Shown here piece by piece: positions 8,232 through 57,978 of a stretch of DNA of 64,000 nucleotides; position 1 is the stretch's first letter; every line of letters starts with the position of its first letter. The DNA comes from Escherichia coli (GTDB lineage: Bacteria; Pseudomonadota; Gammaproteobacteria; Enterobacterales; Enterobacteriaceae), in NCBI RefSeq assembly GCF_041248615.1, contig NZ_CP158425.1; one strand, given 5' to 3'. Below the pieces are notes generated by a model. That model did no database searches and was not told the DNA's origin. It saw only the letters and a program-made list of their open reading frames with translations. A program made the position numbers and the translations under genes.

Positions 8232-8284
8232 AATACCTCCTGTTTAGAAGTATTATATGTAAACAGCCTCAGCGGCTAATAACC
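8232..8284 (-). promoter_or_regulatory. promoter with conserved GGTTATTAGC box, 17-bp spacer and TATAAT
   Basis: Minus strand reads GGTTATTAGCC-17nt-TATAAT-RBS-ATG. Confidence 0.5.
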
Positions 8285-8351
8285 CGTAGCAATATAATTT
8301 GCATTTTTTCTATTTCTGAAGACGCTTTTTAAATTAATATTTACTGAGTTA

Positions 8352-8630
8352 TCACAACTTATTATTCTTCCCGTCTGCTGTTTTATTAATCCCCCAGTTA
8401 GTAATCACGCCAAGTCGGCGCAATTTTTCACGTTGTTCATAAATAAAAAAATCGCCAAGGCAGTCTTTTAAAACTTCACTATCCTGATATTTTATTTTTT
8501 GAAGCATCCTCGCAACTATGGCGCGTTTCAGGAATATGGCTGCATCAGACTCAAGCATTTGTGAGGACTGTCTGACGGTCTCCTGCATGTCGACGATACT
8601 GCTGAGCTTTCGTCTGACCACGCTTAGCAT
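8352..8630 (-). CDS. hypothetical protein
   Basis: 92-aa ORF. Confidence 0.35.
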   Translation of the reverse strand: MLSVVRRKLSSIVDMQETVRQSSQMLESDAAIFLKRAIVARMLQKIKYQDSEVLKDCLGDFFIYEQREKLRRLGVITNWGINKTADGKNNKL

Positions 8631-8814
8631 AGTGTCCGGGAACCGCTTAGCGGCTGAATGTAACCCGCAACAACGTTACGCATTGTTTTACTCACTGCAA
8701 TTTTCCATTTAAGTCTGTTTGTTCCACCAGCTGCTAACATCAGCGTTATTCATCCTGAGGTTTCGCCCGCGATTGACAGATCAGAGGCAGCATGGATGAA
8801 ATTGCCAGAGTAGA

Positions 8815-9096
8815 TCACTGCATACGCGAATAGTGGTTTGTATTCAGTTCTGCGTTTGCCTGCTTTTCCAGTGCTGTCATAACCCGGCGGAGCATCGCCA
8901 GAGCCTGAACAGGCGAGCTCCCAAACTGCACTTTCACTTCAGCCGTATCATGATCCTGAATCAGGTCGAGTATATTCACTTCGATCCCTGCCCCGTTTTC
9001 ATCTTTTGCCGTGCACTGAATACTTACCCGGGTCACCGAATCCGTCAGGACTGGCAGTGGGTTAGTTTTGTCTACGTTGATAACAGCCTTCTTCAT
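8815..9096 (-). CDS. hypothetical protein
   Basis: 93-aa ORF immediately downstream of the ParB-like gene. Confidence 0.4.
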   Translation of the reverse strand: MKKAVINVDKTNPLPVLTDSVTRVSIQCTAKDENGAGIEVNILDLIQDHDTAEVKVQFGSSPVQALAMLRRVMTALEKQANAELNTNHYSRMQ

Positions 9097-9161
9097 TGCC
9101 CTGTTTCCCCTTGTCCTGAAAAAGTTACCGACCCGTCCGGATGGAGGGGTCGGTCAGAAAA

Positions 9162-10346
9162 TCATGACTGTCCCTTGTTCATCTTATCAGCATGCTTACG
9201 CAGGTACTCTTTCAGGTCAGCATGAGCGTTGATGATATCGTTCATTTCATCATTGGTCAGAACAAGCGTGTAAGTATCAGTACTGACAGATTCACCTTCT
9301 TTAAGCTTGGCTTCTTCAGCAATACGTTCAAAAATCGGGATCGCGGTGTCTGCAATGACGGTCACAGTCTTTTTGTTCAGAACGCTGGACATGGAAGGTG
9401 CTTTACCTGCCGGGTTCTGTTTAGGAGCGCTGTCCTTTGGAGCTGGAGCCGGTTCCTGTACCGGTGGCGTATCCAGCGTCTCCGTATTGCTTTCATCGTT
9501 CAGTTGATCCGGTACCGGGGTGTTATCGGTAGTATCATCTGCCGGTTGCTCAGCACCGATGTTTTCCGGAGTCTGCGGATCTGCCATGCGCTCTTCTACC
9601 TTGGCAGCTTTGACGAATTTCAGCGTGTTTTTCGTCGCCTTGCCATAGATGGAGATCGCTTTGTTGATGTTATCTACCGCATCCTCACCGCTGTACATAT
9701 ACTCGTCCAGTGCAACGTACATGCTCACCTGATCGCTCACAAGCATGGTCTGTAGTTCAGAAGGCAGGTCCAGTACGCGAACCATCTGGCGAAGATGCTG
9801 CTCTGATTTACCACGTTTTTTTGCCAGTTCCGCAAAGGTCTTAGGCTCTTCTTTATCTTCAACCAGACGCTTAATTGAAAGCGCTTCAGCTACGACAGAC
9901 AGCGCCAGGTTGGAGTTGCCGGTCAGGGTGAAGAGTTCTGCTTTTGAAGCGCTACCGCGAAACTCTTCGCAGCGAATACGAGTAATGCGTTCACGCCCTT
10001 CTGCTTCCAGCTGGCGGTTTGCAATAGCGATGGAACGGATACGGCAAGCCCCCTGACGCAGTACAGGTACGCCATTAACCATCTGAACAACGATAGGCGT
10101 CACGCTGAACGGGTCTTCCATGTAGGCATCGGCCAGGCTGTTCAGGTGTTCCACAACGTGAGGCATTGAATAGTAGAGCTCGCCCATACCGGCCGTGCGG
10201 GTGTTAAAGCCTTCCTGCTCTACAACAACCGAAGGGTCAATGATAAGGCCGTTGCCTTTACGGGCACCGTTACCAGTGCGTTCCAGGTAACCACGAAGGC
10301 TGATTTCGTTGCTGTTGTTTTTTACTTCAGTTTCGATTGCGGACAT
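9162..10346 (-). CDS. ParB N-terminal domain protein (ParB/Srx-like), paralog 1
   Basis: GFNTR and VNGVPVLRQGACR motifs shared with ORFs 58095..59258 and 62469..63524; no ParA partner. Confidence 0.6.
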   Translation of the reverse strand: MSAIETEVKNNSNEISLRGYLERTGNGARKGNGLIIDPSVVVEQEGFNTRTAGMGELYYSMPHVVEHLNSLADAYMEDPFSVTPIVVQMVNGVPVLRQGACRIRSIAIANRQLEAEGRERITRIRCEEFRGSASKAELFTLTGNSNLALSVVAEALSIKRLVEDKEEPKTFAELAKKRGKSEQHLRQMVRVLDLPSELQTMLVSDQVSMYVALDEYMYSGEDAVDNINKAISIYGKATKNTLKFVKAAKVEERMADPQTPENIGAEQPADDTTDNTPVPDQLNDESNTETLDTPPVQEPAPAPKDSAPKQNPAGKAPSMSSVLNKKTVTVIADTAIPIFERIAEEAKLKEGESVSTDTYTLVLTNDEMNDIINAHADLKEYLRKHADKMNKGQS

Positions 10347-10560
10347 TTTTGTTCTCTTTTTTGGTTGGTTGTTTAACTGCGCTACAACACAACAATACCA
10401 GGTTCGACATTTTTCCTAATAGGTTGCGGAGAAGAAAAAGTAACTTTTTTTAAAAATTTTCCTGAGGCAATACTACTCGATCCGTCCGTTTTAAATCTTC
10501 ACAACAGTGGGCCGTTTTTACGTTTAAGCAAAATAACTGGTTCAGAAGGTGACTCAGAGA

Positions 10561-10575
10561 GAAAAGTTACTTTTC
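10561..10575. promoter_or_regulatory. palindromic motif GAAAAGTTACTTTTC (candidate operator)
   Basis: One of at least 14 copies of AAAAGT(A/T)ACTTTT in intergenic DNA; a second copy at 10435-10451. Confidence 0.5.
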
Positions 10576-11447
10576 CGGTTGTCTGGGCCAGTGATGGGAG
10601 AGTGGCAGGACAGGAATGGCTAAACCGGTGCGGGTCTCTTGTAAGTCGCAGGGGATTCAGGAGATATAGAGGTAAACTGGTACGTTCAGTTTTTGGATTG
10701 AGCCGGGCTTTTGGCCCGGGCTTAAGGAAGCAGAAATTTGAACGAACTGGCAGGTAATGCTTTATGCCGCCGACAGCTGGCCGTCAGTGCTTTGCTGTTC
10801 TGGTTTGACAGTTGGGGGATAACCGGCAGTTAGCCGCTGGCATTCCGCATCACAGAAAGCCCTGAGGTTGCTGAAGACGGACTCCATGAAATCAGCATGA
10901 GCATACGAGTCTACAGGACGTGTCTTGTTATCTTTCATCTTGTTCTCCTCAATCATTATTAAAACCAGCGGATTTAGTTTCTGGCGCTCCATCTGCTGAC
11001 CGGCTTTCCCAGAGAGCAGCGATGTGTCGGGTTCTTTTTCTCATTTTATCGTTTTCATCGGGCCCATCCGGGCGTATAAGAGACCGATTTGGCATGTTTA
11101 GGAAACGTACTGGCGTAATTAAAAGCTGAGGTTGGATTTGGAATAAAAGGATGCTTTTCCCGTTTGTCGGGTCTTTCGCCACCGCTGCACGATGATTCTG
11201 TCAGGCATTCTGCGCCCTCCCAGGCTGCACATCTGGAAACAAGCGTTGGGATGTTCCCTTCCCCTGCTCACCGTAGAAAGATCGGCAAGTCCCGACGGTC
11301 GTTCCGTACGAGCCGGGTCCAAATAATGAATAAATAAAACGCCGCTTCAATTGTATTGACAATAGAAGTCAGGAGGATCATAGTGTCATTCATGGTGCGG
11401 CTTTCGCACCACCGCCCCGGCGGTACCGGGCAGAACTGGAGTACCTC

Positions 11448-12392
11448 ATGAAACTTTCCCGTCAGACGACTTCTGATACTTCTGTTGATGGCCGTTCACG
11501 CGCATATGCCTGGGGCCGTGTCCATTATTTCATTATCGAACATGCACCAATGGCTGAGCTGGTCGCTATTGACGAGCTGCTGGAAAAAGCTGGCTGGAGC
11601 AATGACGGCTGTCCGAACTATGAGAAAGATGACGAGTTTGGTAATGCTGGTTACAGCTGTGGTTACTGGATCGATATTGACAGCGTGGGAAGCTTCAAGG
11701 CTGACTACAAACGTCTTAAGGGGGAGATTAGTGCGCATATCGCCTCAAAGGCGGCAGAGGTGGAGATCCGCGTACTGGACTCGATGTCCGACAAAGAATG
11801 TAAAGATGTTGCCTCGGTGGCATCTACTGTTCGCCGTGACTTACGTACGCAGTCCGAATCGCTTCATTCACTGCGTACAATCGTAACGGTTGATCATTAC
11901 AATCCCTATGTGACCACCAGCCGCCCGCTGAGCATTTCCGCCTGGACACTTATCCACGACTGTCTGAAAACAGGCACCATCAATGACGTCTGTTCACGGT
12001 TGAGTTCATTAATCCTGCACTCTGAAGCCGCGATTGCCCGTTGTAAGGGAAGCTCCGACTACTCTTCGGAACACGCTCAGCTATCGTTTTTTGCTGGTAA
12101 CGACTATGTCACCAGACGCACCCTTGTTGATGCAGCTCACGAAGAGGCTCTGCGAATGAACCGCCGCTTTGATGAACGCATTGCAATGAACGCGGATTCT
12201 GATGCCAGAAGGCTCCAGTGCGAATTCAACCTTAGCAACCATGTCGTACAGCGTAGGACCGTTGAATCTGCTCATATCCAGGCACTCAATGAAGACGTCA
12301 CCCGTTCACAGGCGGAACCACGCTGCCCTGGAAAGCTTCTTCTGAATATGACCAGTCATGAGGAAGTGCGGGACTCACTGAGCGCCTGTTAG
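11448..12392 (+). CDS. hypothetical protein
   Basis: 314-aa ORF heading a short plus-strand gene set. Confidence 0.45.
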   Translation: MKLSRQTTSDTSVDGRSRAYAWGRVHYFIIEHAPMAELVAIDELLEKAGWSNDGCPNYEKDDEFGNAGYSCGYWIDIDSVGSFKADYKRLKGEISAHIASKAAEVEIRVLDSMSDKECKDVASVASTVRRDLRTQSESLHSLRTIVTVDHYNPYVTTSRPLSISAWTLIHDCLKTGTINDVCSRLSSLILHSEAAIARCKGSSDYSSEHAQLSFFAGNDYVTRRTLVDAAHEEALRMNRRFDERIAMNADSDARRLQCEFNLSNHVVQRRTVESAHIQALNEDVTRSQAEPRCPGKLLLNMTSHEEVRDSLSAC

Positions 12393-12488
12393 TCCAGCGA
12401 CACCCCCTGCGGCTCTACTACCGGGCCGCAGTCTGCTCCTGCCCAGATGGTGCCAGTGGTGTAATGAATTTGTTTAATAAGGCTAAGT

Positions 12489-13091
12489 ATGATGAATAAA
12501 GAACAACTAATCGACAAACTGGAACGCGTGGTATGTGGTCAGTACTCCTACGAAATGCAGGAGCTTGCGTATTCGGCCCTCTGCTGCATTAAAGGCACCC
12601 CGGACGACTGCGCTAAGTTCCCTGTTACGCGTCCGCTGCCTGACACCTTAGTGGACGTATGGGACGAAATCGGGCAATACCTTGGCACAGGCAAAGCCAT
12701 TGAAACTCGCAGTTGCGGCGTTTCGCTTCTGCTTCATGGACACTGCTACGATTCAAATCATGTGCTTTACTGGCGCAATGCTGGCGCACTTCCAGCAGCT
12801 TGCGATACGCCACTGGCTGGTGGGTCTCGCAAACTGTTCACCTGCTCAGCCTGTGGAGTGGACGGTCTGGATGAACCACCTGAAACCAGTTGCCACTGCT
12901 GCACAGAGGGGGCCCACTGGGTTGAGAGCAGGCTCTTCACCTCCGGGCAGGCAGACCCTGAAGAATTTAGACCCGTGGCGGTCGTGAAAGAGTGTGCAGG
13001 CTCAACGCCGGATGATCGGCTCATCTGGAGTGTGATTGAACAGCTCAACGGCGAACTGGCGGAAGGCGATAAACTATTTAAGCGACGCTGA
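12489..13091 (+). CDS. cysteine-rich hypothetical protein
   Basis: 200-aa ORF with many Cys/His residues. Confidence 0.45.
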   Translation: MMNKEQLIDKLERVVCGQYSYEMQELAYSALCCIKGTPDDCAKFPVTRPLPDTLVDVWDEIGQYLGTGKAIETRSCGVSLLLHGHCYDSNHVLYWRNAGALPAACDTPLAGGSRKLFTCSACGVDGLDEPPETSCHCCTEGAHWVESRLFTSGQADPEEFRPVAVVKECAGSTPDDRLIWSVIEQLNGELAEGDKLFKRR

Positions 13092-13144
13092 CAGATCACG
13101 GCAGCATTTATAACAGACGAACTCCAGAATAATTTAAAGCAACC

Positions 13145-13501
13145 ATGAACATGAAAAAGCCCAAAGCTGCATTACAGAATGCCATGAAAGAAGATGTGCC
13201 AGCTGTGACACAGATTCAGATGCGATCTACGGTTTCCAGAAAGGTTCGCTATGTAAAACAGGCAAATCGAGAGGGTCTGAAATTATCTGAGTGGATGTCG
13301 CGGCATCTCGACGCTGTCTGTGATACCGCAGATGAGATTCATAAAGGCAAACGCTCAACTCCGGTTGCGCCTGGGAAGATTCCCCCAGAGGTATACCAGG
13401 TGATATACGATCAGTGCGGCGGGTTCGTGGAGTGTGATGCTAATGCCCAGGTTATCTGGGAAGCCTGCCGTAATGCCATTCTTAACGGAGACAAAGGGTA
13501 A
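13145..13501 (+). CDS. putative ribbon-helix-helix DNA-binding protein
   Basis: QIQMRSTVSRKVRYVKQANREGLKLSEWM has a beta-strand then helix pattern; paralog of ORF 38999..39256. Confidence 0.4.
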   Translation: MNMKKPKAALQNAMKEDVPAVTQIQMRSTVSRKVRYVKQANREGLKLSEWMSRHLDAVCDTADEIHKGKRSTPVAPGKIPPEVYQVIYDQCGGFVECDANAQVIWEACRNAILNGDKG

Positions 13502-13531
13502 ACGGCAGGTATCGCCTGTCATTTTACCCTT

Positions 13532-13750
13532 GTGAGGACAATACTGATGAACCATGAGAGCCGAACTGTATACCTGAACACGGCCATTGAGGCCCTGCTG
13601 AAAGCTGAGGCGGCTCTGAACGATCTGGCATTAGCCTATGAGCTTAAACCTGATGAAAAGGCAAGCGCATGCCATCCCAGAACCGGCACACTTTCCACTG
13701 CGTCCCAGGTAAAAAAACTCCGCCGTGTCCTTGAGAAGCAGAAGGTATGA
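13532..13750 (+). CDS. hypothetical small protein
   Basis: 72-aa ORF. Confidence 0.3.
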   Translation: MRTILMNHESRTVYLNTAIEALLKAEAALNDLALAYELKPDEKASACHPRTGTLSTASQVKKLRRVLEKQKV

Positions 13751-16470: not shown

Positions 16471-16692
16471 GATTAACTCTCCAGATTATGTGGAATCATT
16501 ATAACAACTGGCATCCCGCCACAAATAACCTGAGAAAAATTCTTTGAAATATTCCTATATATAAGGAATTACAGTCGGAAAAGAAACGATGAAATAGCGC
16601 CGACCGCTTAAAATCGATAAATTAAAATGGACGGCACTGGAATGAAAAACTGAAAGTAGTAAGACCGTAATTATCCTTCACGGATGTAAGCT

Positions 16693-18178: not shown

Positions 18179-18505
18179 ATGACTAAAAATACTCGTTTTT
18201 CCCCCGAAGTCCGTCAACGGGCAGTCCGTATGGTTCTGGAAAGTCAGAGCGAATATGACTCACAATGGGCGACAATTTGTTCCATTGCTCCAAAGATTGG
18301 CTGTACGCCGGAGACTCTGCGTGTCTGGGTTCGCCAGCATGAGCGGGATACCGGGGGCGGTGATGGAGGGCTCACCACCGCTGAACGTCAGCGTCTGAAA
18401 GAGCTGGAACGTGAAAATCGTGAACTGCGCCGCAGTAACGATATCCTTCGCCAGGCTTCCGCTTATTTTGCGAAGGCGGAGTTCGACCGCCTCTGGAAAA
18501 AATGA
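18179..18505 (+). CDS. IS3-family transposase OrfA
   Basis: 108-aa product recognised from memory as IS629/IS1203 OrfA. Confidence 0.9.
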
Positions 18506-19392
18506 TGCCACTGCTGGATAAGCTGCGTGAGCAGTACGGGGTCGGACCGCTATGCAGCGAACTGCATATTGCCCCGTCAACGTATTACCACTGTCAGCAA
18601 CAGCGACATCATCCGGATAAACGCAGTGCCCGTGCGCAGCGCGATGACTGGCTGAAGAAAGAGATACAGCGCGTATACGATGAAAATCACAAGGTATACG
18701 GTGTGCGTAAAGTCTGGCGTCAGTTGTTACGGGAAGGTATCAGAGTGGCCAGATGCACTGTGGCACGTCTCATGGCGGTTATGGGACTTGCCGGTGTTCT
18801 CCGGGGTAAAAAGGTCCGTACGACCATCAGCCGGAAAGCCGTTGCCGCAGGCGACCGCGTAAACCGTCAGTTCGTGGCAGAACGACCTGACCAGCTGTGG
18901 GTGGCTGATTTTACTTACGTCAGCACATGGCGGGGCTTCGTCTATGTGGCGTTCATCATTGATGTGTTTGCCGGATACATCGTGGGGTGGCGGGTCTCAT
19001 CGTCCATGGAAACGACATTCGTGCTGGATGCACTGGAGCAGGCGTTATGGGCCCGTCGACCGTCCGGCACGGTCCATCACAGTGATAAAGGTTCTCAGTA
19101 TGTATCGCTGGCCTACACACAGCGGCTTAAGGAAGCCGGATTACTGGCATCAACAGGAAGTACAGGCGACTCGTATGACAACGCGATGGCGGAGAGCATC
19201 AATGGTCTTTACAAAGCGGAGGTAATACACCGTAAGAGCTGGAAAAACCGTGCAGAAGTGGAACTGGCCACACTCACGTGGGTGGACTGGTATAACAATC
19301 GACGATTGCTGGAAAGGCTGGGCCATACTCCTCCGGCAGAAGCAGAAAAAGCTTATTATGCTTCCATCGGAAACGATGATCTGGCAGCCTGA
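18502..19392 (+). CDS. IS3-family transposase OrfB (integrase core)
   Basis: 296-aa product; -1 frame relative to orfA with a poly-A stretch at the junction. Confidence 0.9.
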
Positions 19393-19434
19393 GTTCACAG
19401 ATAAAACACTCTCCAGGAAACCCGGGGCGGTTCA

Positions 19435-19772
19435 TCCAGTTTTGGATTCATCCCCTGGGCGTAAGCCACAGTATCGCGGGATGCGGGAGAGCCCTCAAGC
19501 TCAGCATTAGTGATCAGGTATACACCATGACTGTGCGCGAGAAGCACTTTTGGCACCAGATGTGTGCTGGCAATTTTTGAGGATGAGGGAAAGAAAACCC
19601 TACCAGCTTTACGCGCCTCTTCTTCAGTCTGTCCCTCAGCGTTAAGGAGGGCTCCCCCCGGATAGCATGCCGGGTCATAGATCTGATCTGCGGTGACCGA
19701 AAACGTTTTTGCGGTGCGAATTTCTTCGATCAGTTTATTAATATCCGCCATTTCAAATACGAGAGTGGTCAC
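19435..19772 (-). pseudogene. N-terminal part of a gene interrupted by IS629 copy 1 (remainder at 17968-18121)
   Basis: ORF 19395..19772 takes its last 13 codons and stop from the IS; removing the IS and one TCC restores an open frame to a stop at 17968. Confidence 0.4.
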
Positions 19773-19776
19773 AGGC

Positions 19777-20124
19777 TTACTCTCCCTCTTCAGTGGACAA
19801 CATCAGATACTTTGTTGCCAGCAGAAGCTCTCCCACATCCTTGAGGGACAATTCAGCTTTGCCTTCTACGGCAAGCTGCAAGCGCTGTCGAATTGCATGA
19901 ACAGAATCTGAAGATAAAGATGCCATTTTGCGCAAAACGGCATTAGCCTTTTCTACAGCAGGATACAGAATTTCTGAGTTGGTATTATCTTCGTCATTAT
20001 CAAAGATAATTTCAGAATCCATATTGATGTTATCTTCAAGCCAGCTTGAAAGCACTTCAAGTAATGACATCACCTTTTCAATTTGCATATCGCCTCCTCT
20101 GTTAATGTGAAACAAATATAACAA
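19777..20124 (-). CDS. hypothetical protein
   Basis: 115-aa acidic ORF with GAGGAGG RBS. Confidence 0.45.
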   Translation of the reverse strand: MLYLFHINRGGDMQIEKVMSLLEVLSSWLEDNINMDSEIIFDNDEDNTNSEILYPAVEKANAVLRKMASLSSDSVHAIRQRLQLAVEGKAELSLKDVGELLLATKYLMLSTEEGE

Positions 20125-20142
20125 AGTGGCTTACCCGGCTAA

Positions 20143-20198
20143 TAACCTGAGCAGAAAGTTTTCGCACTTTGTTTGAAAACAACTTTTCTGCTCAGGTT
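20143..20198. promoter_or_regulatory. inverted repeat (about 17-bp arms) overlapping the GGTTATTAGC promoter box
   Basis: AACCTGAGCAGAAAGTT ... AACTTTTCTGCTCAGGTT immediately upstream of the 19777..20124 promoter. Confidence 0.45.
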
Positions 20199-20603
20199 AA
20201 TGTTAAAGTCGCTGTGTAAAAGATAAAGGGCACTAAAGATGATTTAAGCATCAAACAGACTAAATCGGATTCCGTCTTTTATATCGCTTTTAAAATAGAA
20301 TGAATGAAATATAAATTTAGCGTTTATGATTGAACGCTGTAGAGGTTGATTTATCCAGTGATATTCAGTTTGGGGCCTTAAAAAGGTTTTATTTTGGATT
20401 CGAATTACAAAGGGAGCACCGACATTTTTCTGGGGGCTCCCGCAGAGAAAAAGCGGTGAGGCTATGAAGACGAAGAGGAGGTATTCGACGAAATACTGTA
20501 TGGCCACAGGAGAGCTTCAGCACCCATATCCTGCCGTCTCGCTCGCCTGTAATGATTTCAACATGTACAACGTCATACCACGTAGTTGTATTTCTCACTT
20601 TGT

Positions 20604-21331: not shown

Positions 21332-21558
21332 TATGTATCCTTAAGACGTTGTGTTAAATGATTCAAAAAAATTTATAACCAGACGTAAATTATTATACAT
21401 AAGTAAGCACTTTAGCTAACAAGCTGGAGGAGTGAATTTCGGTTAGCAACTATATTTTAGAAGCTGATTGCTGAATAGACAAAGCCCGGCTTACCGGGCA
21501 TTCATTTAATTAGATGCTAGAAATCTGACCCGTCGTCTGACTTTTATTCCAGGCAGAG

Positions 21559-32425: not shown

Positions 32426-32519
32426 TTTACCCGTCCCCGTCCATATTCATGATACGGTAATGATACCAGGTCGATATCATTACCTAATAACTTGGTGAAA
32501 GAAAATCTGTAATTTTTAG

Positions 32520-32897: not shown

Positions 32898-32961
32898 AAA
32901 ACCTCCTTTTCATCTGTACTTATTATACTGTTACCCAACCCCCAGCTAATAACCTCCCAGC
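32898..32961 (-). promoter_or_regulatory. promoter with GGTTATTAGC box and TATAAT
   Basis: Minus strand reads GGAGGTTATTAGCTGG-16nt-TATAAT-RBS-ATG. Confidence 0.5.
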
Positions 32962-34486: not shown

Positions 34487-34494
34487 TTTTAACC

Positions 34495-34840: not shown

Positions 34841-35311
34841 TTAATGAATCCCTAAAATGCGGGCGGCGACTGCCAGCTGCTTATCACTTAACTGACGCTG
34901 GTGGGTTAAAGAAGACTTAAGGCTTTCCAGAAAATTATTACTGCTGGATTGCTGGGTGATTGCATCAACCATTTTTTGATGAGATCTGCACCATGCATTG
35001 AACGCAGAGTTGTGGGCGTTTTCAGTCCTCAAACGCTCGTTTTGCAAGGATGCTGACACTTTGCGGGCAGCTTGAGCATTAATGCGGTACAGCGCATTCA
35101 GCGTGTAAGAAGTGCGGGTCGTTTCGAGGCTGTAACCCGTGGCTTTACAAGCCATACAGCGACTTCTATAAAAATGCTTACGCTCTCCCCGACCATTGCA
35201 TTTATCGCAAAGAATACGAAAAGTATATTCCGCAGTACCTTTTACAGAATCAACACAGCGGATTTTTGCGCTGGAGATTTCAATTCCACTGCGATCATAA
35301 TATTTGGTCAT
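34841..35311 (-). CDS. zinc-ribbon protein with two CxxCxGxG motifs
   Basis: CDKCNGRG and CMACKATG; GGTTATTAGC promoter box upstream. Confidence 0.5.
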   Translation of the reverse strand: MTKYYDRSGIEISSAKIRCVDSVKGTAEYTFRILCDKCNGRGERKHFYRSRCMACKATGYSLETTRTSYTLNALYRINAQAARKVSASLQNERLRTENAHNSAFNAWCRSHQKMVDAITQQSSSNNFLESLKSSLTHQRQLSDKQLAVAARILGIH

Positions 35312-35745
35312 AATGTGATTCCTCCGGTTAGTTCTGGAGTAATCATGACAGAATGAATCTACTGGCTAATAACCTGAGAGTAAATATTTTAAAAAAACAT
35401 TGAGAGAGGGTCTGCAAATTTATACACGAAGGATTCAAATATAATTTTGTTTAAAAAATTAAGAGCATTCTGAAGTAAAAGTGCATCAAAAAGCATTCAT
35501 GGATAAATCATGTACTGGTGCCAGCCATTTAAACGCGGGCATTGTTCCGGAGTGATTAAACGGTTTAGCATCATAGATTAAAACCAAAAGGAAGGCGTCC
35601 TTCCCGTCTCGGGAATATTACTTTCCCGTTTGCAATTTAAGAGCCACTTAATGAGAAAGTAATAATTAAGTCATGCTCAACTCTACATATTACATTGAGG
35701 ATGGCGTAACAGGGTACGGCATACTACCGCACCCTTCTGAAGAGC

Positions 35746-38163
35746 TTATGTTTGAGGGAATTCTATAGCAAATGTGGCCGTGCCAGATTGACCACTTACA
35801 GCGGGAGTAACGGGATACGTGCGCTCTTCACCATTACCAAGATCCAGTGACAGCGATTTAGTTTCACCAGGCTGGACCGTAACTCCGGCAACCGTAACGC
35901 CGAACTGGGCATTTTTCTGAACAGTCAGGGTTCCGTTTAACTGTCCGGTAATGATAGAACCGTCCTGACGCCGCAACACACTGGTTCGGATGATGGCCAG
36001 CGGCGTGTTGTCCGTTGCTTTCAGTGCTACGGCTGTGGCCAGCGTCTTGAGATTATCCAGCATAATCAGATTCGCAGGCTGGTAGGTAAAATTAAGCGTT
36101 TTAGTGGTCCGGTTACCTGATTCGTCAATAGCCAGTGCCTCCAGATGATACATCTGTCCCGATTCGTCAGTGTTGGGGAAGATTCTGGGGTATTCCGGAA
36201 TAAAGACATCCTTGGATAACGGCGTGAATGCCAGGGTGACCTTTTCAGAGTTAGGTCCACCAGCGAGCTGAAGCGATGTCAGGGAAGCATCCCCAGAGGC
36301 ATCAGTAACGCTTATGCGAAGGTTCTCAAGCCCTTTAACCAGTTTTCCTTCTGCGTCTGCGCCATTAAAACTGAACGCGATAACCGGAAGCGTTGAGTCA
36401 ATTTTCAGCGGTGCATTAAGCGTTTTGGTTCCGGTGTTTCCAACAAGATCCGTGGCAGAGACGCTAACCACCGTATAATCCCCGTCCGGTAGACCAGCGT
36501 ATGAGAAGGTGGCGTTTTTGGTTTTATAATCGCTTTCACTGACGGTCACAGGCTTCAGCGTGAAAGGTTCCCCCCGGGCATTTTTAAGGGTGGCTTCGAA
36601 AACTTTGGTATCCCAGTAGCTGATGTTCCAGGCGTTGACGCGATCATTATCGGTGGCCGTCATAGTGATTGTCTTGGAGGCCTTGTTTACCTGAGCGACA
36701 TTAACCACCGGTGGGTTGTTATCCCAGATAACCGTAAAATTACCAGCAAGCGCATCGAATATGCTGTCACCATCTTTTCCCGAGTAAAGGTGCAGATACT
36801 CAAATCCTTTGTCACTGGTGTAGTTGAAGTTAACCGTCATCTCGCATGAACTTTGTCCGATAGGTATAGTGCAGAACCAGGCTGCATTTTTTACCGTTCT
36901 GAACTTTTGCACGTATGGTCGGGGTTCAGCGGTTACCTTTATGCGGCTAATGGTGGCGGTTTTAACGCTGATTGAGGCCTGAGTTAACCACTCACTGGTA
37001 TCACTCCGGTACATCTCTTTAGCCACTATCTTCGGGGCTATTTCCATCGCCGGGGCTGGAGTGAAGTTGAGGGAGTTATGATGAATTCGTCTTACTCCTC
37101 CTGCCAGAGTCTGGAATTCATGATAAGTATCCCCCACATTGGGATATATGTATTTGAAAGTATAAATATTATAAGTGCTATCGGACGTCTGGAAATTCGA
37201 GTCCGCCCAGCCATATTTGGAACCGTTAACAGCAGTAAAGTCACTTTTTTTCCTTAATACCCGTACGGAAATAGGGTTCTGGAAGACGGTCATGCCAGAC
37301 TGATAAGTGACCCATGATCCGGTAGTGGCGTCCTGCACCTGGATGATATCGTCAGGCTTAACCCGATCAATTACGCTTCGGCGGCTTAGTTCGATCCTGT
37401 TTCCCGCTTTGTCATAAAGGTAGATCCCCACTTTATATTCAGAGCGGTTTTCCGGTGCCAGGGCATTGCTGCTTGCGTCGGCGACTTGAACGGTTACGCT
37501 ACCTTCCACTGTATTAATTTCCGCTGGCTTTTTACGCTCCACTCCAGCGGCATCGGTTATGAAATATTCAGCATTAGCAAGCCCGGAACCTTTATCACTC
37601 AGTCCATTAAAGACCAGTGCCTGGACGCTGGCGTACTGCATACCGGCTGGTACTGAAGTGAAGATCGCTTCGCTGCCAAAGTTCCACCCGTTTCTCGTAT
37701 AACTTATGGTACCCGTTGCCGGAGGCGTTCGGTCAATTGCAAGCGGGTAATCCTGCCGGGAGACCTCCTTCCCTTGCAAGTCGGTAATCACCTCTCTGAG
37801 GGTGAAGCTATCTTCTCCCATCGCTGGTACGGTCAGAGTCTTGCCGTAATAATCAAAGCCTGTCGAAGATGTGGTACGGTCATCTACGGTAACCAGGCTG
37901 CTTTTCGTGCTCCAGATGAGGCTCCCGTCACTTTTCAGCAGACTGAGCGTAATATAACGGTCCAGACCGGAAATAACGGCAACGTCAAAGCTCGTTACCG
38001 GATTAATCCATACGGATGCAGGCGATACGGTCTTTTTAACGTTCAGGGTATCTTTAAAGCTGAATTCTGCGATTTCAGCGGAAGCTCCTGCGCTGAAACC
38101 TGCAAATGCAATAAGCAGGGCTAGTTTGATTTTCATGGGTTGTCTCCTGATCAGGTTCCCCAT
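35746..38163 (-). CDS. large secreted protein, paralog A of an about 800-aa family
   Basis: Sec signal peptide ending ASA; conserved LISGLDRY and C-terminal LTVQKNAQFG blocks shared with two other ORFs. Confidence 0.6.
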   Translation of the reverse strand: MGNLIRRQPMKIKLALLIAFAGFSAGASAEIAEFSFKDTLNVKKTVSPASVWINPVTSFDVAVISGLDRYITLSLLKSDGSLIWSTKSSLVTVDDRTTSSTGFDYYGKTLTVPAMGEDSFTLREVITDLQGKEVSRQDYPLAIDRTPPATGTISYTRNGWNFGSEAIFTSVPAGMQYASVQALVFNGLSDKGSGLANAEYFITDAAGVERKKPAEINTVEGSVTVQVADASSNALAPENRSEYKVGIYLYDKAGNRIELSRRSVIDRVKPDDIIQVQDATTGSWVTYQSGMTVFQNPISVRVLRKKSDFTAVNGSKYGWADSNFQTSDSTYNIYTFKYIYPNVGDTYHEFQTLAGGVRRIHHNSLNFTPAPAMEIAPKIVAKEMYRSDTSEWLTQASISVKTATISRIKVTAEPRPYVQKFRTVKNAAWFCTIPIGQSSCEMTVNFNYTSDKGFEYLHLYSGKDGDSIFDALAGNFTVIWDNNPPVVNVAQVNKASKTITMTATDNDRVNAWNISYWDTKVFEATLKNARGEPFTLKPVTVSESDYKTKNATFSYAGLPDGDYTVVSVSATDLVGNTGTKTLNAPLKIDSTLPVIAFSFNGADAEGKLVKGLENLRISVTDASGDASLTSLQLAGGPNSEKVTLAFTPLSKDVFIPEYPRIFPNTDESGQMYHLEALAIDESGNRTTKTLNFTYQPANLIMLDNLKTLATAVALKATDNTPLAIIRTSVLRRQDGSIITGQLNGTLTVQKNAQFGVTVAGVTVQPGETKSLSLDLGNGEERTYPVTPAVSGQSGTATFAIEFPQT

Positions 38164-40308: not shown

Positions 40309-40628
40309 GATGGTTTTCCTTTTATGCCCGGTGCCGCCGGGACGGTGGCATTAAATATACGCCATGTAAGTAAATTAATTTTTACCCATTTGATTGTCAA
40401 TACAAACAAAAAATAAACCATGTTTATTATTTTACCAGCGATGCTATTTTAAAGTCCGTCTAAAATAAAAAACCAAAAAGTTAAATTTGAAGCCATCCTT
40501 CCTAAATTCATTTCTTGCGCATATTAGCCCCTGCTTTAAGTATATAATTTTTGAAAAAGTTGTCTGGAGGTTATTAGCTCGTGCATCTGGATTGTTAATA
40601 TAAAGCCAACACAGAAAAGGAAAACAAA

Positions 40629-46269: not shown

Positions 46270-48115
46270 TGATTACGACAATGGGAGTGAGTGTCGAACC
46301 CCTTGAGTAAGGATACTTGGTAAATATACAGCCCCGGGGATTCTCTTCCTTCAACCGGGGATGACAACGGGAGTGAGTCCGGCAACTCACACCTGTTGTC
46401 ACTTCTCTGACATATCGTCATACGAGCTTACTCAAGCGCATCCACAAAGATGGGATCGTTTTGAATCTAAACTGGTACTGGTTAGCCAGTCACTTGCATC
46501 TACTCCCCCGTCGATATTTAAGTGACAATTGTAGTGATCTGCAATACTGGTGTCTCAGAAACACTGACGACGGTAGAGACTCAATACCCTAACCCCTGAC
46601 AACAGAAGTGAGCTTAGAGGTGTTACGCTGCTGTCACCTAATGCTTGGGAATTGCCTGACTCACAACCATTGTCATCCGGAGCTACTGATTAACGTTGAA
46701 CCGCTGGACTTTAATGACAGTGGTAGTGATGGATAGGCTCATTTCCATTGTCGTCATTTTATCGGACAAGCCTCTTCGTCCTACAGGTTTAAGCTGACAA
46801 TGGTAGTGATTGGATGATCTCACTACTGTTGTCACTCAGTTCTTTGAGCGGACCCTTCCCTCGGTTGGTCGGCATTAACAACGGTAGTGACTCGATTGGC
46901 TCACTGCCATTGTCATCGTGTAAATGACGTACCTTATCAGCTCAGCTGAAAGCAATGACAACGGTAGTGACTCTAATTGCTCACTGCCATTGTCGTCGTG
47001 TCTATTGAGAGCCTTATCAGTGCACCTGAAAAGCAATGACAACGGTAGTGATTCTAATGGCTCACTACCGTTGTCACCGTGTGTATTGAGAGGATGGTCC
47101 ACCTAACTGGACGTATATGACAATGGTAGTGACTTTAATAGCTCACTACCATTGTCGGTGTGTGAATTGAGAGGATGAGCAGCTCAGCTGTACGTCCATG
47201 ACAATGGTAATGACTTAATGAGCTCACTACCGTTGTCACCCTGTTAATTAAGAGGCTCATCTGCTCTTCTGGAAGGCTATGACAACGGAAGTGACTTGCT
47301 GGGCTCACTGCCATTGTCGCCGTATGAATTGAGAGGATCATCCGCTCTTCTGGATGGCAATGACAACGGTAATGACTTAATAGGCTCACTACCATTGTCA
47401 CCCTGTGAATTGAGAGGATGATCTGCTTAACCAGACGGCCATGACAACGGTAGTGACTTTCTGGGCTCAATACCGTTGTCACCCTGTGAGTTAAGAGGTT
47501 GACCCGCTCTACTGGACGGCCATGACAACGGTAGTCACTTTCTGGGCTCACTACCGTTGTCACCCTGTGAGTTAAGAGGTTGACCCGCTCTACTGGACGG
47601 CCATGACAACGGTAGTCACTTTCTGGGCTCACTACCGTTGTCGCCATATAGAATGAGAGGAGCATCAGCTCAACTGAACGGCAATGACTACAGTAATGAG
47701 CTGGATGAAGCATAACCATTGACATCTGGCCCAACCGGAAGCCGTATTCGCCAATCCAATCGAGATTCACAATGGCCGTGACTCGCCGCATTAAGTTCCG
47801 GTGTCCTCCCAAAGCTGAACGCACACTCGGAGGACAATGACAATGCCAGTAAGGTACACATCATTACCATTGTCACTATAGCTACCAGAGAAGCCGGGAT
47901 TTGAATGTCGATGGTAGTGAGTGGGTCAACTCACTGCCATTGTCACCCCGTTACGATATTTTCCGTTGGATGTACTGGCCAATGAAGTAAAGCGTAGAAA
48001 CCGGGTGTTAACAGGTGACTCAGGAGAAAGCGTTGAATTTCGCAATCTCGATCTACATAGGGTGGTAGAGAACAATGACAACGGTAATGACTTTTGACTC
48101 ATTACCGTTGACGTG
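46270..48115. repeat. array of about 20 palindromic iteron pairs with about 81-bp periodicity (incA-like copy-control region)
   Basis: Units ATGACAACGGTAGTGAC-8nt-CTCACTACCGTTGTCAC recur every 80-81 bp (47118, 47198, 47279, 47360, 47441, 47522, 47603 and others). Confidence 0.7.
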
Positions 48116-49495: not shown

Positions 49496-50020
49496 TCACT
49501 ACTATTGTCGCTCTGATCACTACTGATGTCAAAAAACTCATTACCAACGTTATAATAATCACTACTAATGTCAAAATAATCACTACTGTTGTCACTGATC
49601 ACGTCTCAGGCCTTGTGCCGTCTGGCCTGGAGGCAGCGGGGATCTCTTTTGATCTATCAGGAACACTAAGGTACTAATTATTGGAACTACCTTGTGGAAA
49701 ATGGGGATAAATAAATGCTTAGTTCTTATACAGGTCTCAACTTGCCTCCCTGATAAAAACTGTCGTCAAAGCTAAATCACAGCCACAGGCATTTTCGGTG
49801 GATAAATTTTTGAGAAATAGAAGCATACATGCAGACTCGTGTCGCAAGTAATTGAAAGTAATGATTTATTTAAATAATGCGAGTCACCTTACCTCACAGT
49901 GGAAGTTTAAGTCTAACCTCACTACCATTGTCACTTAAAATCATTACCAACGTCGAAATAGTCTCTACCATTGTCTTTTAAGTCACTCCCGTTGTCACTT
50001 ATGTCGCTACTGTTGTCAGT
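49496..50020. repeat. origin iterons: two sets of five direct repeats (TCACTACNNTTGTC) at 21-22-bp spacing
   Basis: Set 1 starts at 49496, 49517, 49538, 49559, 49580; set 2 at about 49918 to 50004. Confidence 0.7.
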
Positions 50021-55909: not shown

Positions 55910-55967
55910 ATCCTGAACCGCCCCGGGAATCCTGGAGACTAAACTTCCTGAGAAAGAGGTAAACAGG

Positions 55968-56294
55968 ATGACTAAAAATACTCGTTTTTCCCCCGAAGTC
56001 CGTCAACGGGCAGTCCGTATGGTTCTGGAAAGTCAGGATGAATATGACTCACAGTGGGCGGCAATTTGTTCCATTGCCCCAAAGATTGGCTGTACGCCGG
56101 AGACTCTGCGTGTCTGGGTTCGCCAGCATGAGCGGGATACCGGGGGCGGTGATGGTGGGCTCACCAGCGCTGAACGTCAGCGTCTGAAAGAGCTGGAACG
56201 TGAAAATCGTGAACTGCGCCGCAGTAACGATATCCTTCGCCAGGCTTCCGCTTATTTTGCGAAGGCGGAGTTCGACCGCCTCTGGAAAAAATGA
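55968..56294 (+). CDS. IS3-family transposase OrfA
   Basis: 108 aa, nearly identical to 18179..18505. Confidence 0.9.
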
Positions 56295-57181
56295 TGCCAC
56301 TGCTGGATAAGCTGCGTGAGCAGTACGGGGTCGGACCGGTATGCAGCGAACTGCATATTGCCCCGTCAACGTATTACCATTGTCAGCAACAGCGACATCA
56401 TCCGGATAAACGCAGTGCCCGTGCGCAGCACGATGACTGGCTGAAGAGAGAGATACAGCGCGTATACGATGAAAATCATCAGGTGTACGGTGTGCGTAAA
56501 GTCTGGCGTCAGTTGTTACGGGAAGGAATCAGGGTGGCCAGATGTACAGTGGCGCGCCTCATGGCGGTTATGGGACTTGCCGGTGTTCTCCGGGGTAAAA
56601 AGGTCCGTACGACCATCAGCCGGAAAGCCGTTGCCGCAGGCGACCGCGTAAACCGTCAGTTCGTGGCAGAACGACCTGACCAGCTGTGGGTGGCTGATTT
56701 TACTTACGTCAGCACATGGCGGGGCTTCGTCTATGTGGCGTTCATCATTGATGTGTTTGCCGGATACATCGTGGGGTGGCGGGTCTCATCGTCCATGGAA
56801 ACGACATTCGTGCTGGATGCACTGGAGCAGGCGTTATGGGCCCGTCGACCGTCCGGCACGGTCCATCACAGTGATAAAGGTTCTCAGTATGTATCGCTGG
56901 CCTACACACAGCGGCTTAAGGAAGCCGGATTACTGGCATCAACAGGAAGTACAGGCGACTCGTATGACAACGCGATGGCGGAGAGCATCAATGGTCTTTA
57001 CAAAGCGGAGGTAATACACCGTAAGAGCTGGAAAAACCGTGCAGAAGTGGAACTGGCCACACTCACGTGGGTGGACTGGTATAACAATCGACGATTGCTG
57101 GAAAGGCTGGGCCATACTCCTCCGGCAGAAGCAGAAAAAGCTTATTATGCTTCCATCGGAAACGATGATCTGGCAGCCTGA
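56291..57181 (+). CDS. IS3-family transposase OrfB
   Basis: 296 aa, nearly identical to 18502..19392. Confidence 0.9.
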
Positions 57182-57223
57182 GTTCACAGATAAAACACTC
57201 TCCAGGAAACCCGGGGCGGTTCA

Positions 57224-57847
57224 ATCCACCCTTAATTTCTGCCAGGGGTATTTAGACGGCTCGCAAACTCCGGTAGTGATCATGCGGGTGGAGAACCCAA
57301 AAGCTTTGTTTGTCTTGTGACTGCGGCTCAGAGACTGGAAGACGTCGTAAACCCTTTCTTTAATAAATTGATTGCGGTCATTAAGCAAAGCAACGACTGT
57401 GCCCACTACAGCGTCAGCTGTGAAATCAGGGATCACCTGAGGCGGCATAATATAACGGTCGGCCGTAAACTGCTTATCCCATTCGTTACGTTTGGCATCC
57501 GACATGATAGGCAAAACATCAGTGAGTGCCATAACGCGTTTCCAGTATTCTGATCTCAGAGCGTTTTCTGCGAACAAGGCATCCGCTTCTGAGATGCTGT
57601 GGTTGTAGCCTGAGAGATAAGAATAAAGTTTCTGGTGATTGTGGGTTTTGAACTGGACAGCCATGAGTTTCAACAAGCAGAGTTCATCATTATAGGACTC
57701 AACAAGATCCGCGATAATGCCGAGCTCTTTGCGCATATCTGGAAGAAATGTTTCAGGAGAGCTAACCACCAGGCTATGAGAGGTTGTTAAAGCCAGTACG
57801 CTGTGACCTGCATTATCGGGTTTAGCTTCAGAATCAAGAGATGACAT
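57224..57847 (-). pseudogene. N-terminal part of the gene split by IS629 copy 2
   Basis: ORF 57221..57847 takes its stop codon from the IS terminus. Confidence 0.5.
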
Positions 57848-57978
57848 TTTACCGGTCCTTTAGAAAAAACTTTTACCAGGATAGCAACGTCGCTCAGTAA
57901 CCTAATAGGTTCAGTGACACGAAAAAGTTTTTTATGTCTCTGAATAAAACTTAAAGATGTCAACTCATAGAAAGAAGC

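Follow-up and report, generated by a model that had tools for sequence, protein, structure and literature searches.

A Conserved Box at the -35 Position of IncHI Promoters

In an IncHI2 resistance plasmid and related plasmids, about ten promoters have a conserved 11-base box, GGTTATTAGCC, in place of the -35 element. This box marks a previously undescribed plasmid gene-control circuit, and we did not find the motif in the searchable literature. The box is probably the core of an IncHI-specific promoter cassette that works on double-stranded DNA and joins a sigma-70 extended -10 to a -35 region predicted to bind a factor.

The stretch of DNA analysed (the window) is the final 64 kb of a 238-kb Escherichia coli IncHI2 mcr-1 plasmid (NZ_LT599829.1). 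Copies of the box head transcription units in an array of mostly uncharacterised genes, which run in one direction and separate the Tra1 relaxase operon from the RepHI2 replicon. The array encodes orphan DNA methyltransferases, a ParB-like protein, a HigB-like toxin operon, and DUF957, DUF3085, DUF4942, and DUF6012 proteins. A strand bias noted in the first-pass annotation was borne out: annotated genes from 4521 to 35311 are all on the minus strand, barring four genes (11448-13750) and an IS3 transposase. Of the two directions in which transfer could proceed, this orientation is compatible with one only. A literature search for a nic site or transfer direction in IncHI plasmids or MOBH relatives found none.

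The box is a pseudo-palindrome (GGYTA-T-TARCC) located at -39 to -29 and bears no likeness to TTGACA. A standard two-hexamer sigma-70 scan called none of the box promoters; thus, a canonical -35 is missing. Exact copies of GGTTATTAGC number five in the window against 0.09 expected, a count reached in none of 100 shuffles, and with one mismatch there are eight against four expected. The relaxed pattern YTATTAG-N18-TAnnnT occurs 11 times (0.8 expected), and all copies except one lie directly upstream of a start codon in the correct orientation. In a matrix scan of the whole plasmid, using a matrix trained on the same seven top sites that it scored, those sites scored 24.7-32 and the next site 19.5, compared to a best score per shuffled plasmid of 14.5-22.5 (n = 20). 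All seven strong sites of the 238-kb plasmid fall inside the window.

The seven strong sites share a layout: an A/T tract resembling an UP element (approximately -60 to -47), the box, a spacer, a -10 hexamer, a short leader, a ribosome-binding site (RBS), and a start codon. The spacer between the box 10-mer and the -10 hexamer is 17 bp, or 18 bp at one strong site. TGn directly precedes the hexamer in five of the seven, and the start codon follows the hexamer by 20-40 nt with a strong RBS. Terminator-like hairpins lie upstream of several boxes, which points to independent transcription units. The first-pass annotation had described much of this layout at seven sites, and six of them stand; the seventh, at 57847, carries a variant box and not a GGTTATTAGC match. 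The T-runs upstream of the box and the strong RBSs downstream are both present. The proposed spacer of 16-17 bp is 17 bp when counted between the last base of the 10-mer and the hexamer, and the proposed flanks, (C/T)CA...(C/T)GG, are conserved only in part.

Strong and Variant Sites

Six of the seven strong sites are on the minus strand. The first (8252-8284) has GGTTATTAGC at 8275-8284, a 17-bp spacer, and TATAAT at 8252-8257. It precedes a start at 8231, from which a 98-aa protein and downstream minus-strand genes are read, and the box of its R27 orthologue is at L010:44686. The second (16498-16530) has a variant box, GGTTATTTGT, at 16521-16530, a 17-bp spacer, and TGT-TATAAT (hexamer 16498-16503) ahead of a start at 16470. 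The third (20115-20147) has GGTTATTAGC at 20138-20147, a 17-bp spacer, and TGT-TATATT (hexamer 20115-20120). Its gene, for the DUF957 protein, starts at 20088; the start previously placed at 20124 adjoins the -10 hexamer. Orthologous boxes are at L010:34154 and L008:38886. The fourth (27816-27849) is the site with the 18-bp spacer, between GGTTATTAGT (27840-27849) and TGT-TATGAT (hexamer 27816-27821). A terminator-like hairpin lies upstream (27949-27961), and the GTG start at 27773 opens a gene for a 263-aa protein followed by a PAPS-reductase-family operon; the orthologues were aligned. The fifth (32922-32954) has GGTTATTAGC at 32945-32954, a 17-bp spacer, and TATAAT at 32922-32927, with the start at 32897 of an operon containing an N6/N4 DNA methyltransferase. 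The sixth (35342-35374) is the best conserved in the five-lineage alignment. It has GGTTATTAGC at 35365-35374, a 17-bp spacer, and TGT-CATGAT (hexamer 35342-35347), and the operon starting at 35311 encodes a 156-aa zinc-finger protein, a HigB-like toxin, and a 393-aa protein. The seventh is on the plus strand (40569-40601), with GGTTATTAGC at 40569-40578, a 17-bp spacer, and TGT-TAATAT (hexamer 40596-40601). It was aligned across five lineages and precedes genes for a 254-aa protein (start 40629) and then a methyltransferase.

Six to eight weaker box variants, including the 57847 site, have the layout of the strong sites, with 17-bp spacers at those described here. The ParB-like protein gene (start 10346) has a variant promoter at 10392-10424 on the minus strand, with ACCTATTAGG at 10415-10424 and TGG-TATTGT (hexamer 10392-10397). 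The box at its R27 orthologue is GGTTATTAGG, and an AAAGTTACTTT palindrome (10437-10447) adjoins the box on its upstream side. The same ACCTATTAGG and 17-bp spacing occur at the site that the first-pass annotation listed as a weaker form (57878-57910, minus strand), where the box (57901-57910) sits within a perfect palindrome, AACCTATTAGGTT, and is followed by TATCCT (57878-57883) and the start of the DUF4942 protein gene (57847). A weak minus-strand member at 21392-21424 has GCTTGTTAGC at 21415-21424 and ATG-TATAAT (hexamer 21392-21397) before a start at 21331; a terminator-like hairpin (21484-21499) is directly upstream. Two more variants on this strand are at 28688-28720 (ACCTATTAGC at 28711-28720, TATCAT at 28688-28693, start 28649) and, as an internal promoter, at 32460-32492 (AGTTATTAGG at 32483-32492, TGG-TATCAT with its hexamer at 32460-32465, start 32425). 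A possible weak member on the plus strand (59538-59570) has AGTTATTAGT at 59538-59547 and TACGAT at 59565-59570, ahead of a Dam-family methyltransferase gene (start 59628). The first-pass annotation had overlooked the perfect plus-strand box at 40569-40578 and the weaker ones at 21415-21424, 28711-28720, 32483-32492, and 59538-59547.

Conservation Across IncHI Lineages

Eight promoters of R27 (IncHI1) have the same box in the same spacing and orientation, as do seven of pCF2206-1, five of a Lelliottia plasmid contig, and six of an Enterobacter contig. The box is thus kept in five IncHI lineages, and its flanks are approximately 70% identical or less. When orthologous upstream regions from four to five lineages were aligned, GGTTATTAG was the sole long invariant non-coding block; the other invariant stretches were short runs at the -10 region and at the RBS and start codon. 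Information content in an alignment of 23 sites is highest at the box, the TG, and the -10 hexamer. Across approximately 35 sites in the five lineages, the 17-bp spacing is invariant and the orientation single. The box is still perfect in the two most distant lineages even though several of their -10 hexamers are weak (CATTCT, TAAGAT, TAGCGT), a hint that the box adds positively to promoter activity.

Regulation of the Box Promoters

The first-pass annotation had suggested a dedicated regulator or sigma-factor site. As a class, this fits the fixed position, spacing, and orientation of the box and its conservation in five lineages. The standard sigma-70 extended -10 speaks against an alternative sigma factor and in favour of a DNA-binding protein that works together with sigma-70 RNA polymerase. 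Extended -10 promoters usually function without -35 contact. Host sigma-70 RNA polymerase would fire the box promoters by way of the A/T tract and the extended -10, and an IncHI-encoded, sequence-specific protein would bind the box and control all of them jointly. This protein is more likely a repressor than an activator, and we give the repressor version about an even chance. It would shut the regulon once the plasmid is established. In a cell still without repressor, the regulon genes would burst on by zygotic induction, as with ArdK at the IncN CUP elements. No helix-turn-helix, ribbon-helix-helix, or sigma-like match was found among the region's proteins in Pfam, NCBIfam, or PHROGs. Rigid 17-bp spacing, fixed orientation, and a conserved asymmetry (T left, G right) suit an element that contacts the transcription machinery and are less expected of a simple operator.

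Expression data for R27 bear on the sign of regulation. In microarrays of plasmid-bearing cells, operons with a perfect core box (approximately R0062-R0066 and R0106-R0109) were "not expressed" at 25 or 37°C, with or without htdA, and the imperfect-box genes R0098, R0104, and R0110 were expressed, R0140 at a lower level (PMC7366339, supplement). This is the opposite of what is expected for an activator present in the cell. The signals lean toward a repressor, given that our mapping of R27 ORF numbers to coordinates is approximate and that R0140 was placed on fewer anchors than the others.

An activator is a less probable, if still appreciable, explanation. The box would replace the -35 and bind a putative activator, encoded by the IncHI plasmid, through which sigma-70 RNA polymerase is recruited or remodelled, by class II activation or by sigma appropriation as at the MotA-box middle promoters of phage T4, and the regulon would be off by default. 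The missing canonical -35, the invariant spacing in one orientation, the retained asymmetry, and the perfect boxes beside weak hexamers would all be explained. The A/T tract also occupies the distal UP position, with the interval from -46 to -30 left open as in class II promoters, and silence of perfect-box operons in R27 donors fits an activator that is absent there too. However, the imperfect-box promoters of R27 are expressed, extended -10 promoters seldom need the -35 contact, and no candidate activator or protein like MotA, AsiA, or sigma region 4 was detected. A missing repressor is also a simpler switch for genes that a naive recipient needs at once than an activator that has yet to be made.

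It is improbable that no dedicated factor is involved, with the box either a relic of one ancestral promoter spread by duplication or an upstream element that RNA polymerase itself reads via sigma region 4 or the alpha C-terminal domain, and donor silencing left to H-NS and Hha. Homologues of both proteins are encoded by IncHI plasmids, the regulator search was negative, and, by sequence reading, TTAGCC at a 16-bp spacing matches TTGACA at three of six positions. The information in the box far exceeds the need of such a match, however, and 10-11 box positions are near-invariant while spacers and flanks have fully diverged. Specificity, frequency, and confinement to one plasmid family are the usual signature of a specific DNA-binding protein.

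Single-strand promoters of the Frpo/ssi type, also proposed in the first-pass annotation, are very unlikely and were largely refuted by folding. Here the entering strand would fold, the box and -10 would become duplex, and transcription would precede complementary-strand synthesis. Nearly all genes are on one strand facing the relaxase/oriT region, and the gene content is leading-region-like (methyltransferases, toxin-antitoxin genes, the ParB-like protein), although the published leading-region analysis covers methyltransferases, SSBs, and toxin-antitoxin genes only (PMC11541004). We folded 261 nt of ssDNA around each of eight sites, on both strands, and found no long stem-loop that turns the box/-35 and the -10 into duplex. 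Template-strand fold z-scores at four sites are between -0.7 and +0.8; negative scores are due to upstream terminator hairpins or to a single local repeat. That inverted repeat, reported with arms of about 17 bp, is real and has perfect 15-nt arms (20143-20157 and 20185-20199). As ssDNA, 20143-20199 folds at -18.7 kcal/mol (z = -5.8). Its 3' arm on the coding (minus) strand is CTCAGGTTA, the 5' part of the third box, and the -10 is outside. The repeat is found at this one site only and is specific to IncHI2, being absent from the orthologous promoter in R27 and pCF2206-1; it would be either a terminator-like hairpin that serves the upstream unit or another half-box in inverted orientation. Frpo recreates a canonical TTGACA and TATAAT (PMC11541004), whereas the -35 position here holds the non-canonical box, and the plus-strand member at 40569 points the opposite way.

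Least probable of all is a loading site for a phage-Q-like antiterminator giving read-through of the long array: the candidate, the zinc-finger protein encoded first in the operon behind the best-conserved box (35374), weakly matches the PHROG "anti-termination protein Q-like" (phrog_127, E = 0.0019) and has a Cys4 zinc finger, but the finger is of the DnaJ CxxCxGxG type, no PDB fold, of Q or of any other protein, significantly matches the AlphaFold model (pLDDT 80), and the 23-site alignment has no conserved -10-like pause element after the predicted start site.

Comparison With Known Systems

The co-regulated, double-stranded promoter cassette that we favour can be set beside four systems. 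The Frpo/ssi promoters of F-like and IncI leading regions share its proposed setting among establishment-type genes facing one way, and the sigma-70 -10 hexamer with an A/T-rich upstream tract. The IncHI box promoters differ in having no long intrastrand stem-loop and no canonical -35; what is conserved in them is a specific box rather than a structure.

The middle promoters of phage T4 (MotA box plus AsiA) carry a conserved asymmetric box instead of a -35, and the distance from it to a good sigma-70 -10, often an extended one, is fixed. In T4, as in IncHI plasmids, many promoters of a single mobile genome have such a box. The centre of the MotA box is near -30 and that of the IncHI box near -34, the sequences differ, and no MotA-like or AsiA-like protein was found in the IncHI region. 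The T4 promoters are activated by MotA/AsiA, whereas the R27 data lean the opposite way for IncHI.

In the KorA/KorB system of the IncP plasmid RK2, operators are likewise repeated at many plasmid-backbone promoters. KorA operators have a fixed position in the core promoter, and KorB, a member of the ParB family, binds a palindrome that is dispersed across the plasmid. The IncHI2 plasmid too encodes a ParB-like protein, and 44 copies of an 11-bp palindrome, AAAGTWACTTT, are scattered over it; we infer that the two are partners. There is no sequence or detectable protein homology between the systems, and the IncHI box overlaps the -35, not the -10.

The CUP/ArdK system of the IncN plasmids pKM101 and R46 has a short conserved sequence repeated at promoters of several non-transfer, establishment-type genes. 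According to PMC6289460 (citing Delver and Belogurov, 1997), the leading-region promoters overlap 13-nt CUP consensus sites, to which ArdK binds, and ArdK represses these promoters, its own included; CUP is bound by this single plasmid-encoded, autoregulating protein. The box sequence is not CUP, no ArdK homologue was recognised in the IncHI region, and the IncHI box keeps a constant position, -39 to -29, with its spacing and orientation fixed. CUP sites are in the leading region, and the IncHI array is a putative leading region. The regulon logic of many operons and one site is alike, with the sign of regulation at the IncHI box possibly the same.

A Shared Promoter Element Across the IncHI2 Backbone

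Promoters in the window carry a conserved 10-11 bp element, here called the box, at the -35 position (-39 to -29). The window corresponds at 100% identity to positions 174074-238073 of NZ_LT599829.1, which is plasmid p14408_M1 of E. coli NRZ14408, a 238-kb mcr-1 carrier with an IncHI2A replicon, a MOBH relaxase and F-type mating-pair formation. The rest of that record was used to take box counts over the whole 238-kb replicon as well. At the start of the window are the last genes of the Tra1 relaxase operon (traD and genes for a DtrJ-like protein, an S49 peptidase and a NERD nuclease). An array of about 31 kb (4521-35311) follows, consisting of mostly unannotated genes that are almost all on the minus strand and include orphan methyltransferases, Hok and HigB-like toxins, a ParB-like protein, and DUF957, DUF905, DUF3085 and DUF4942 genes. 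After the array are Ig-like protein genes, the RepHI2 replicon with its iterons and further backbone genes.

Seven strong sites have a common layout, in which a spacer of 17 bp (18 bp in one case) separates the box from a TATAAT-like hexamer, and a start codon with a strong RBS follows after 20-42 nt. A TG precedes the -10 hexamer at five of the seven, as it does at most sites of the other lineages described below. The sequence GGTTATTAGC has five exact copies in the window vs. 0.09 expected. The box core is GGTTATTAGCC and its degenerate form is a pseudo-palindrome, GGYTA-T-TARCC, with an asymmetry (T on the left, G on the right) that is retained at nearly all sites. The repeated box and -10 layout had been proposed in a first-pass annotation and is real; six of the seven strong sites were already in that annotation, which overlooked the seventh (40569-40578, plus strand). 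The promoter it placed near 20124 also stands, with the start position corrected to 20088.

A weight-matrix scan of the 238-kb plasmid for the box plus the -10 scored the seven strong sites at 24.7-32 and the next best at 19.5. That gap is partly circular, as the same seven sites served to train the matrix. In 20 shuffled plasmids, the highest score per plasmid was 14.5-22.5. The seven top-scoring sites of the real plasmid all fall inside the window. The relaxed pattern YTATTAG-N18-TAnnnT provides a model-free, non-circular test; it has 11 copies vs. 0.8 expected, 10 of which are directly upstream of a start codon in the correct orientation. Variant members found by the relaxed-pattern scan are located at 10415-10424 (the ParB-like gene promoter), 28711-28720, 32483-32492, 57901-57910 (ACCTATTAGG, previously listed as a weaker form) and 59538-59547. 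A weak site is present at 21415-21424 and one further site was found in the rest of the plasmid. The short site has 7 strong and 6-8 weaker copies at plasmid promoters, is strongly enriched, and is kept in five lineages.

The window also contains other repeats and insertions. About 10 tandem copies of an 81-bp unit are found at 46866-47699, each holding a near-palindrome of about 40 bp (TGACAACGGTAGTGA...TCACTACCGTTGTCA), and shorter 21-bp repeats flank repHI2 (49516-49594 and 49960-50018). Both are presumably RepHI2 iterons or incompatibility repeats. Two IS3-family insertions (18179-19392 and 55968-57181) match IS629/IS1203-type copies in Stx phages; they appear to truncate the DUF3085 gene (19395-19772) and to have come between a DUF4942 gene and a methyltransferase gene. 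At 5581-5883 (minus strand), a small protein that is predicted to be a membrane protein ends in 13 glycines followed by Asp (GGGGGGGGGGGGGD).

Conservation of the Box

A distant-mode search with the region of the site at 35374 returned about 270 plasmids at 60-80% identity. Four further lineages were compared: R27 (the archetype of IncHI1), pCF2206-1 (IncHI1B type), a Lelliottia amnigena contig and an Enterobacter contig, the last two found through homologues (58-61% identity) of the gene that opens the 35374 operon. Each has 5-8 copies of the box ahead of orthologous genes, with the orientation unchanged and the -10 at a distance of 17 bp, and the 17-bp spacing is found at about 33 of 35 sites across the lineages. 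In aligned orthologous upstream regions, GGTTATTAG is the sole long invariant non-coding block. Apart from this block, invariance is limited to short runs around the -10 and the RBS/start codon; spacer and flank sequences have diverged freely.

Scanning 100,044 representative genomes for exact matches to the pattern produced 29 hits, all of them single and scattered over unrelated taxa. This number is about chance level; one of the hits, in Proteus, sits within a long ORF. Hits in a scan of viral contigs were clonal coincidences, apparently coding, and nothing like the box promoters was found there. A full-text literature search for the box on either strand, whole or in part, gave primers and unrelated sequences, nothing relevant, and the IncHI regulation literature that we searched makes no mention of such a motif. 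The box is a previously undescribed, IncHI-specific promoter/operator element.

Promoter Type and the Factor That Reads the Box

The -10 hexamers agree with TATAAT at 4-6 of 6 positions. The promoters have the features of extended -10 sigma-70 promoters, namely TGn directly ahead of a TATAAT-like hexamer, a -35 that is weak or missing, and a distance of 20-60 nt to the start codon. They are canonical sigma-70 promoters only in part, with a good and usually extended -10 and a non-canonical -35. Because ATTAGC/TTAGCC occupies the -35 position, a standard two-hexamer sigma-70 scan did not recognize any box promoter. At about -60 to -47, the sites have in common an A/T tract (TTTT..AAAA(A/T)nTTTC) that resembles the distal half of an UP element. 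Terminator-like hairpins are found ahead of several boxes (21484-21499, 27949-27961 and 35589-35605), and the boxes therefore head separate transcription units.

The first-pass annotation had proposed either single-strand-activated promoters (Frpo/ssi-like) or a dedicated regulator or sigma-factor site. The dedicated regulator site is supported here: the 10-11 conserved positions are limited to one plasmid family, which argues for a plasmid-encoded DNA-binding protein, and an alternative sigma factor is disfavored by the perfect sigma-70 -10. We give about an even chance that the factor is a repressor. Extended -10 promoters with an A/T-rich upstream tract are expected to fire without a -35 contact, which favors an operator. 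In microarrays of R27 (Gibert et al., PMC7366339), operons with a perfect core box were "not expressed" at both temperatures in the wild type and the htdA mutant. The imperfect-box genes R0088, R0098, R0104 and R0110 gave clear signals and were up 2.6-6.5-fold in the htdA mutant at 25°C (PMC7366339). These comparisons involve small numbers and an approximate placement of R-numbers on the coordinates, with corA, flmA, the Tn10 genes and the H operon as anchors. Silence at a perfect box and leakiness at an imperfect one is the pattern that would come from a repressor.

Both the expected firing and the R27 arrays count against the box being a positive promoter element that is read by an activator. 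This alternative is somewhat unlikely in our view, although it would fit the rigidity of the 17-bp spacing, the single orientation throughout, the conserved asymmetry of the box and the fact that the box remains perfect even with weak -10 hexamers. It is improbable, in turn, that the box is a plasmid-specific -35 substitute read by a putative IncHI protein that would redirect the host sigma-70 RNA polymerase in the manner of T4 MotA/AsiA. We know of no conjugative plasmid with such a redirection, and we did not find homologues of a T4 MotA-type activator or a sigma-remodelling co-factor. If this were the case, IncHI plasmids would have promoters of a class peculiar to them, and their entry into a new cell would start a timed "early gene" programme.

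Single-Strand Promoters and the Leading Region

In Frpo-type promoters, a long stem-loop in the entering strand recreates duplex -35 and -10 elements (PMC11541004). The ssDNA folding suggested in the first-pass annotation was run on 261 nt around eight sites, on both strands, and no stem-loop was found that makes the -35 and -10 duplex. The template strand at 8284, 32954, 35374 and 40569 folds no better than shuffled sequence, and the fold signal at 21424 and 27849 is that of upstream terminator hairpins. The sole strong local hairpin is at 20147, with perfect 15-nt arms (20143-20157 and 20185-20199; z = -5.8). It pairs CTCAGGTTA with an upstream inverted copy, the -10 stays single-stranded, and it is absent from the orthologous promoters of R27 and pCF2206-1. 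Two readings of this hairpin are left: a terminator-like structure that serves the upstream unit, and an inverted second half-site. The box promoters do have a -10, but their -35 slot holds ATTAGC/TTAGCC and not the TTGACA-like -35 in a stem that is a feature of Frpo. Two defining features were tested and neither was found, which places the box promoters outside of the Frpo/ssi family, and the single-strand proposal is rejected. We conclude that the box promoters are ordinary double-stranded promoters. As a caution for annotation, genes on one strand with repeated promoters should not be equated with single-strand promoters without a folding test. A mini-hairpin in the box itself was also dismissed, since the variants, compared directly between sites, do not co-vary consistently.

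The gene content of the array resembles that of a leading region. The array genes face the relaxase operon and the probable oriT, upstream of mobI, and this would be the right orientation for transcribing the transferred strand only with the relaxase operon going first, which is one of two possible directions. The 40569 site faces the opposite way to the minus-strand members. Neither a nic site nor a transfer direction for IncHI/MOBH turned up in the literature searched, and attempts to map the nic site of the related IncA/C plasmids were unsuccessful (PMC5587640).

Candidate Regulators and Neighboring Genes

Sequence searches against Pfam, NCBIfam, PHROGs and the PDB, run with the product of each operon's first gene, TrhR, TrhY, HtdA, a 393-aa protein and small neighboring proteins, detected no DNA-binding domain in the region's proteins; the lack of a domain match does not prove that a regulator is absent. 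TrhR and TrhY are unlikely to read the box, as the tra operon promoters are without it, bar a weak look-alike between trhN and trhI. That look-alike (TCAGGTTGTTTGTG-N13-TGGAATAAT) is at 36916-36947 of the plasmid record, beyond the window, upstream of a hypothetical gene in Tra2, and is the sole candidate member among the transfer genes. A 103-aa protein behind the variant box at 16530 was considered as an autoregulated repressor and set aside; its homologues are all close ones, and no orthologue was detected in R27.

The best-conserved box, at 35374, is followed first by the gene of a 156-aa protein that has a DnaJ-type CxxCxGxG zinc finger and matches a "Q-like" PHROG weakly (E = 0.0019). 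Its AlphaFold model (pLDDT 80) has no fold match in the PDB. A Q-like antiterminator was dropped given the weakness of the PHROG match, the lack of a structural match and the lack of a conserved pause element downstream of the -10. The protein (34841-35311) and a 238-aa protein with the same type of zinc finger (61538-62254), both encoded on the minus strand and both assigned to phrog_4046, are paralogs. The family has 14 homologues among 5.8 billion proteins and appears to be restricted to IncHI-type plasmids. At 33305-34791 (minus strand) is a HigB-like toxin gene (PF05015) with, 9 nt on, the gene for the conserved 393-aa protein, in which we found no HTH and no family match. If the 393-aa protein is an antitoxin, it is an unusual one.

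A second repeated sequence in the region is the 11-bp palindrome AAAGTWACTTT, which is probably the palindrome that the first-pass annotation grouped with the promoters. There are 15 copies in the window (at 486, 5388, 10437, 10563, 17556, 21076, 23807, 28856, 33068, 38272, 43989, 46213, 52997, 53062 and 61203) vs. 0.08 expected, and 44 in the whole plasmid, none of them within its resistance/transposon region. The copies are both intragenic and intergenic, and some are near tra promoters (mobI, trhR, trhF and parM). Two are directly upstream of the promoter of the ParB-like gene (region 10347-10580), and one is also present at the R27 orthologue. This gene (9162-10346, minus strand) encodes a 394-aa protein with HTH_ParB, parB_part and phrog_1033 matches. 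The palindromes upstream of its own promoter suggest a KorB-like protein that would bind the scattered palindrome and autoregulate.

Significance and Comparison with Known Regulons

In Salmonella, E. coli and Enterobacter, IncHI1 and IncHI2 plasmids are major vehicles of resistance to multiple drugs and to colistin (mcr-1), and the array is the least understood part of this clinically important plasmid family. To our knowledge, the known regulators HtdA, TrhR/TrhY and H-NS/Hha leave the control of the large non-transfer array unexplained. In R27, about two-thirds of the ORFs have no resemblance to known ORFs (PMC4853401). The box defines the transcription units of the array and predicts a co-regulated set of 10-15 operons, rich in methyltransferases and establishment/anti-defence-like genes. 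The 11-bp site is a simple handle for a regulator search. If the regulon fires on entry to a new host, targeting its regulator would offer a way to block the establishment of the plasmid.

In architecture, the middle promoters of T4 are similar to the box promoters in having a box, the MotA box, instead of a -35, at a fixed distance to an extended -10. In mode of working, the closest likeness is to the IncN CUP/ArdK regulon and the IncP Kor regulons, where one short site is repeated over many backbone promoters. Because no homologous protein was found, membership in the ArdK or MotA families cannot be claimed. The KorA operators of IncP plasmids are at a fixed position. The CUP/ArdK sites of IncN plasmids overlap the promoters (PMC6289460). 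Together, the KorA and CUP/ArdK sites are a precedent for a fixed operator position in the global regulons of plasmids.
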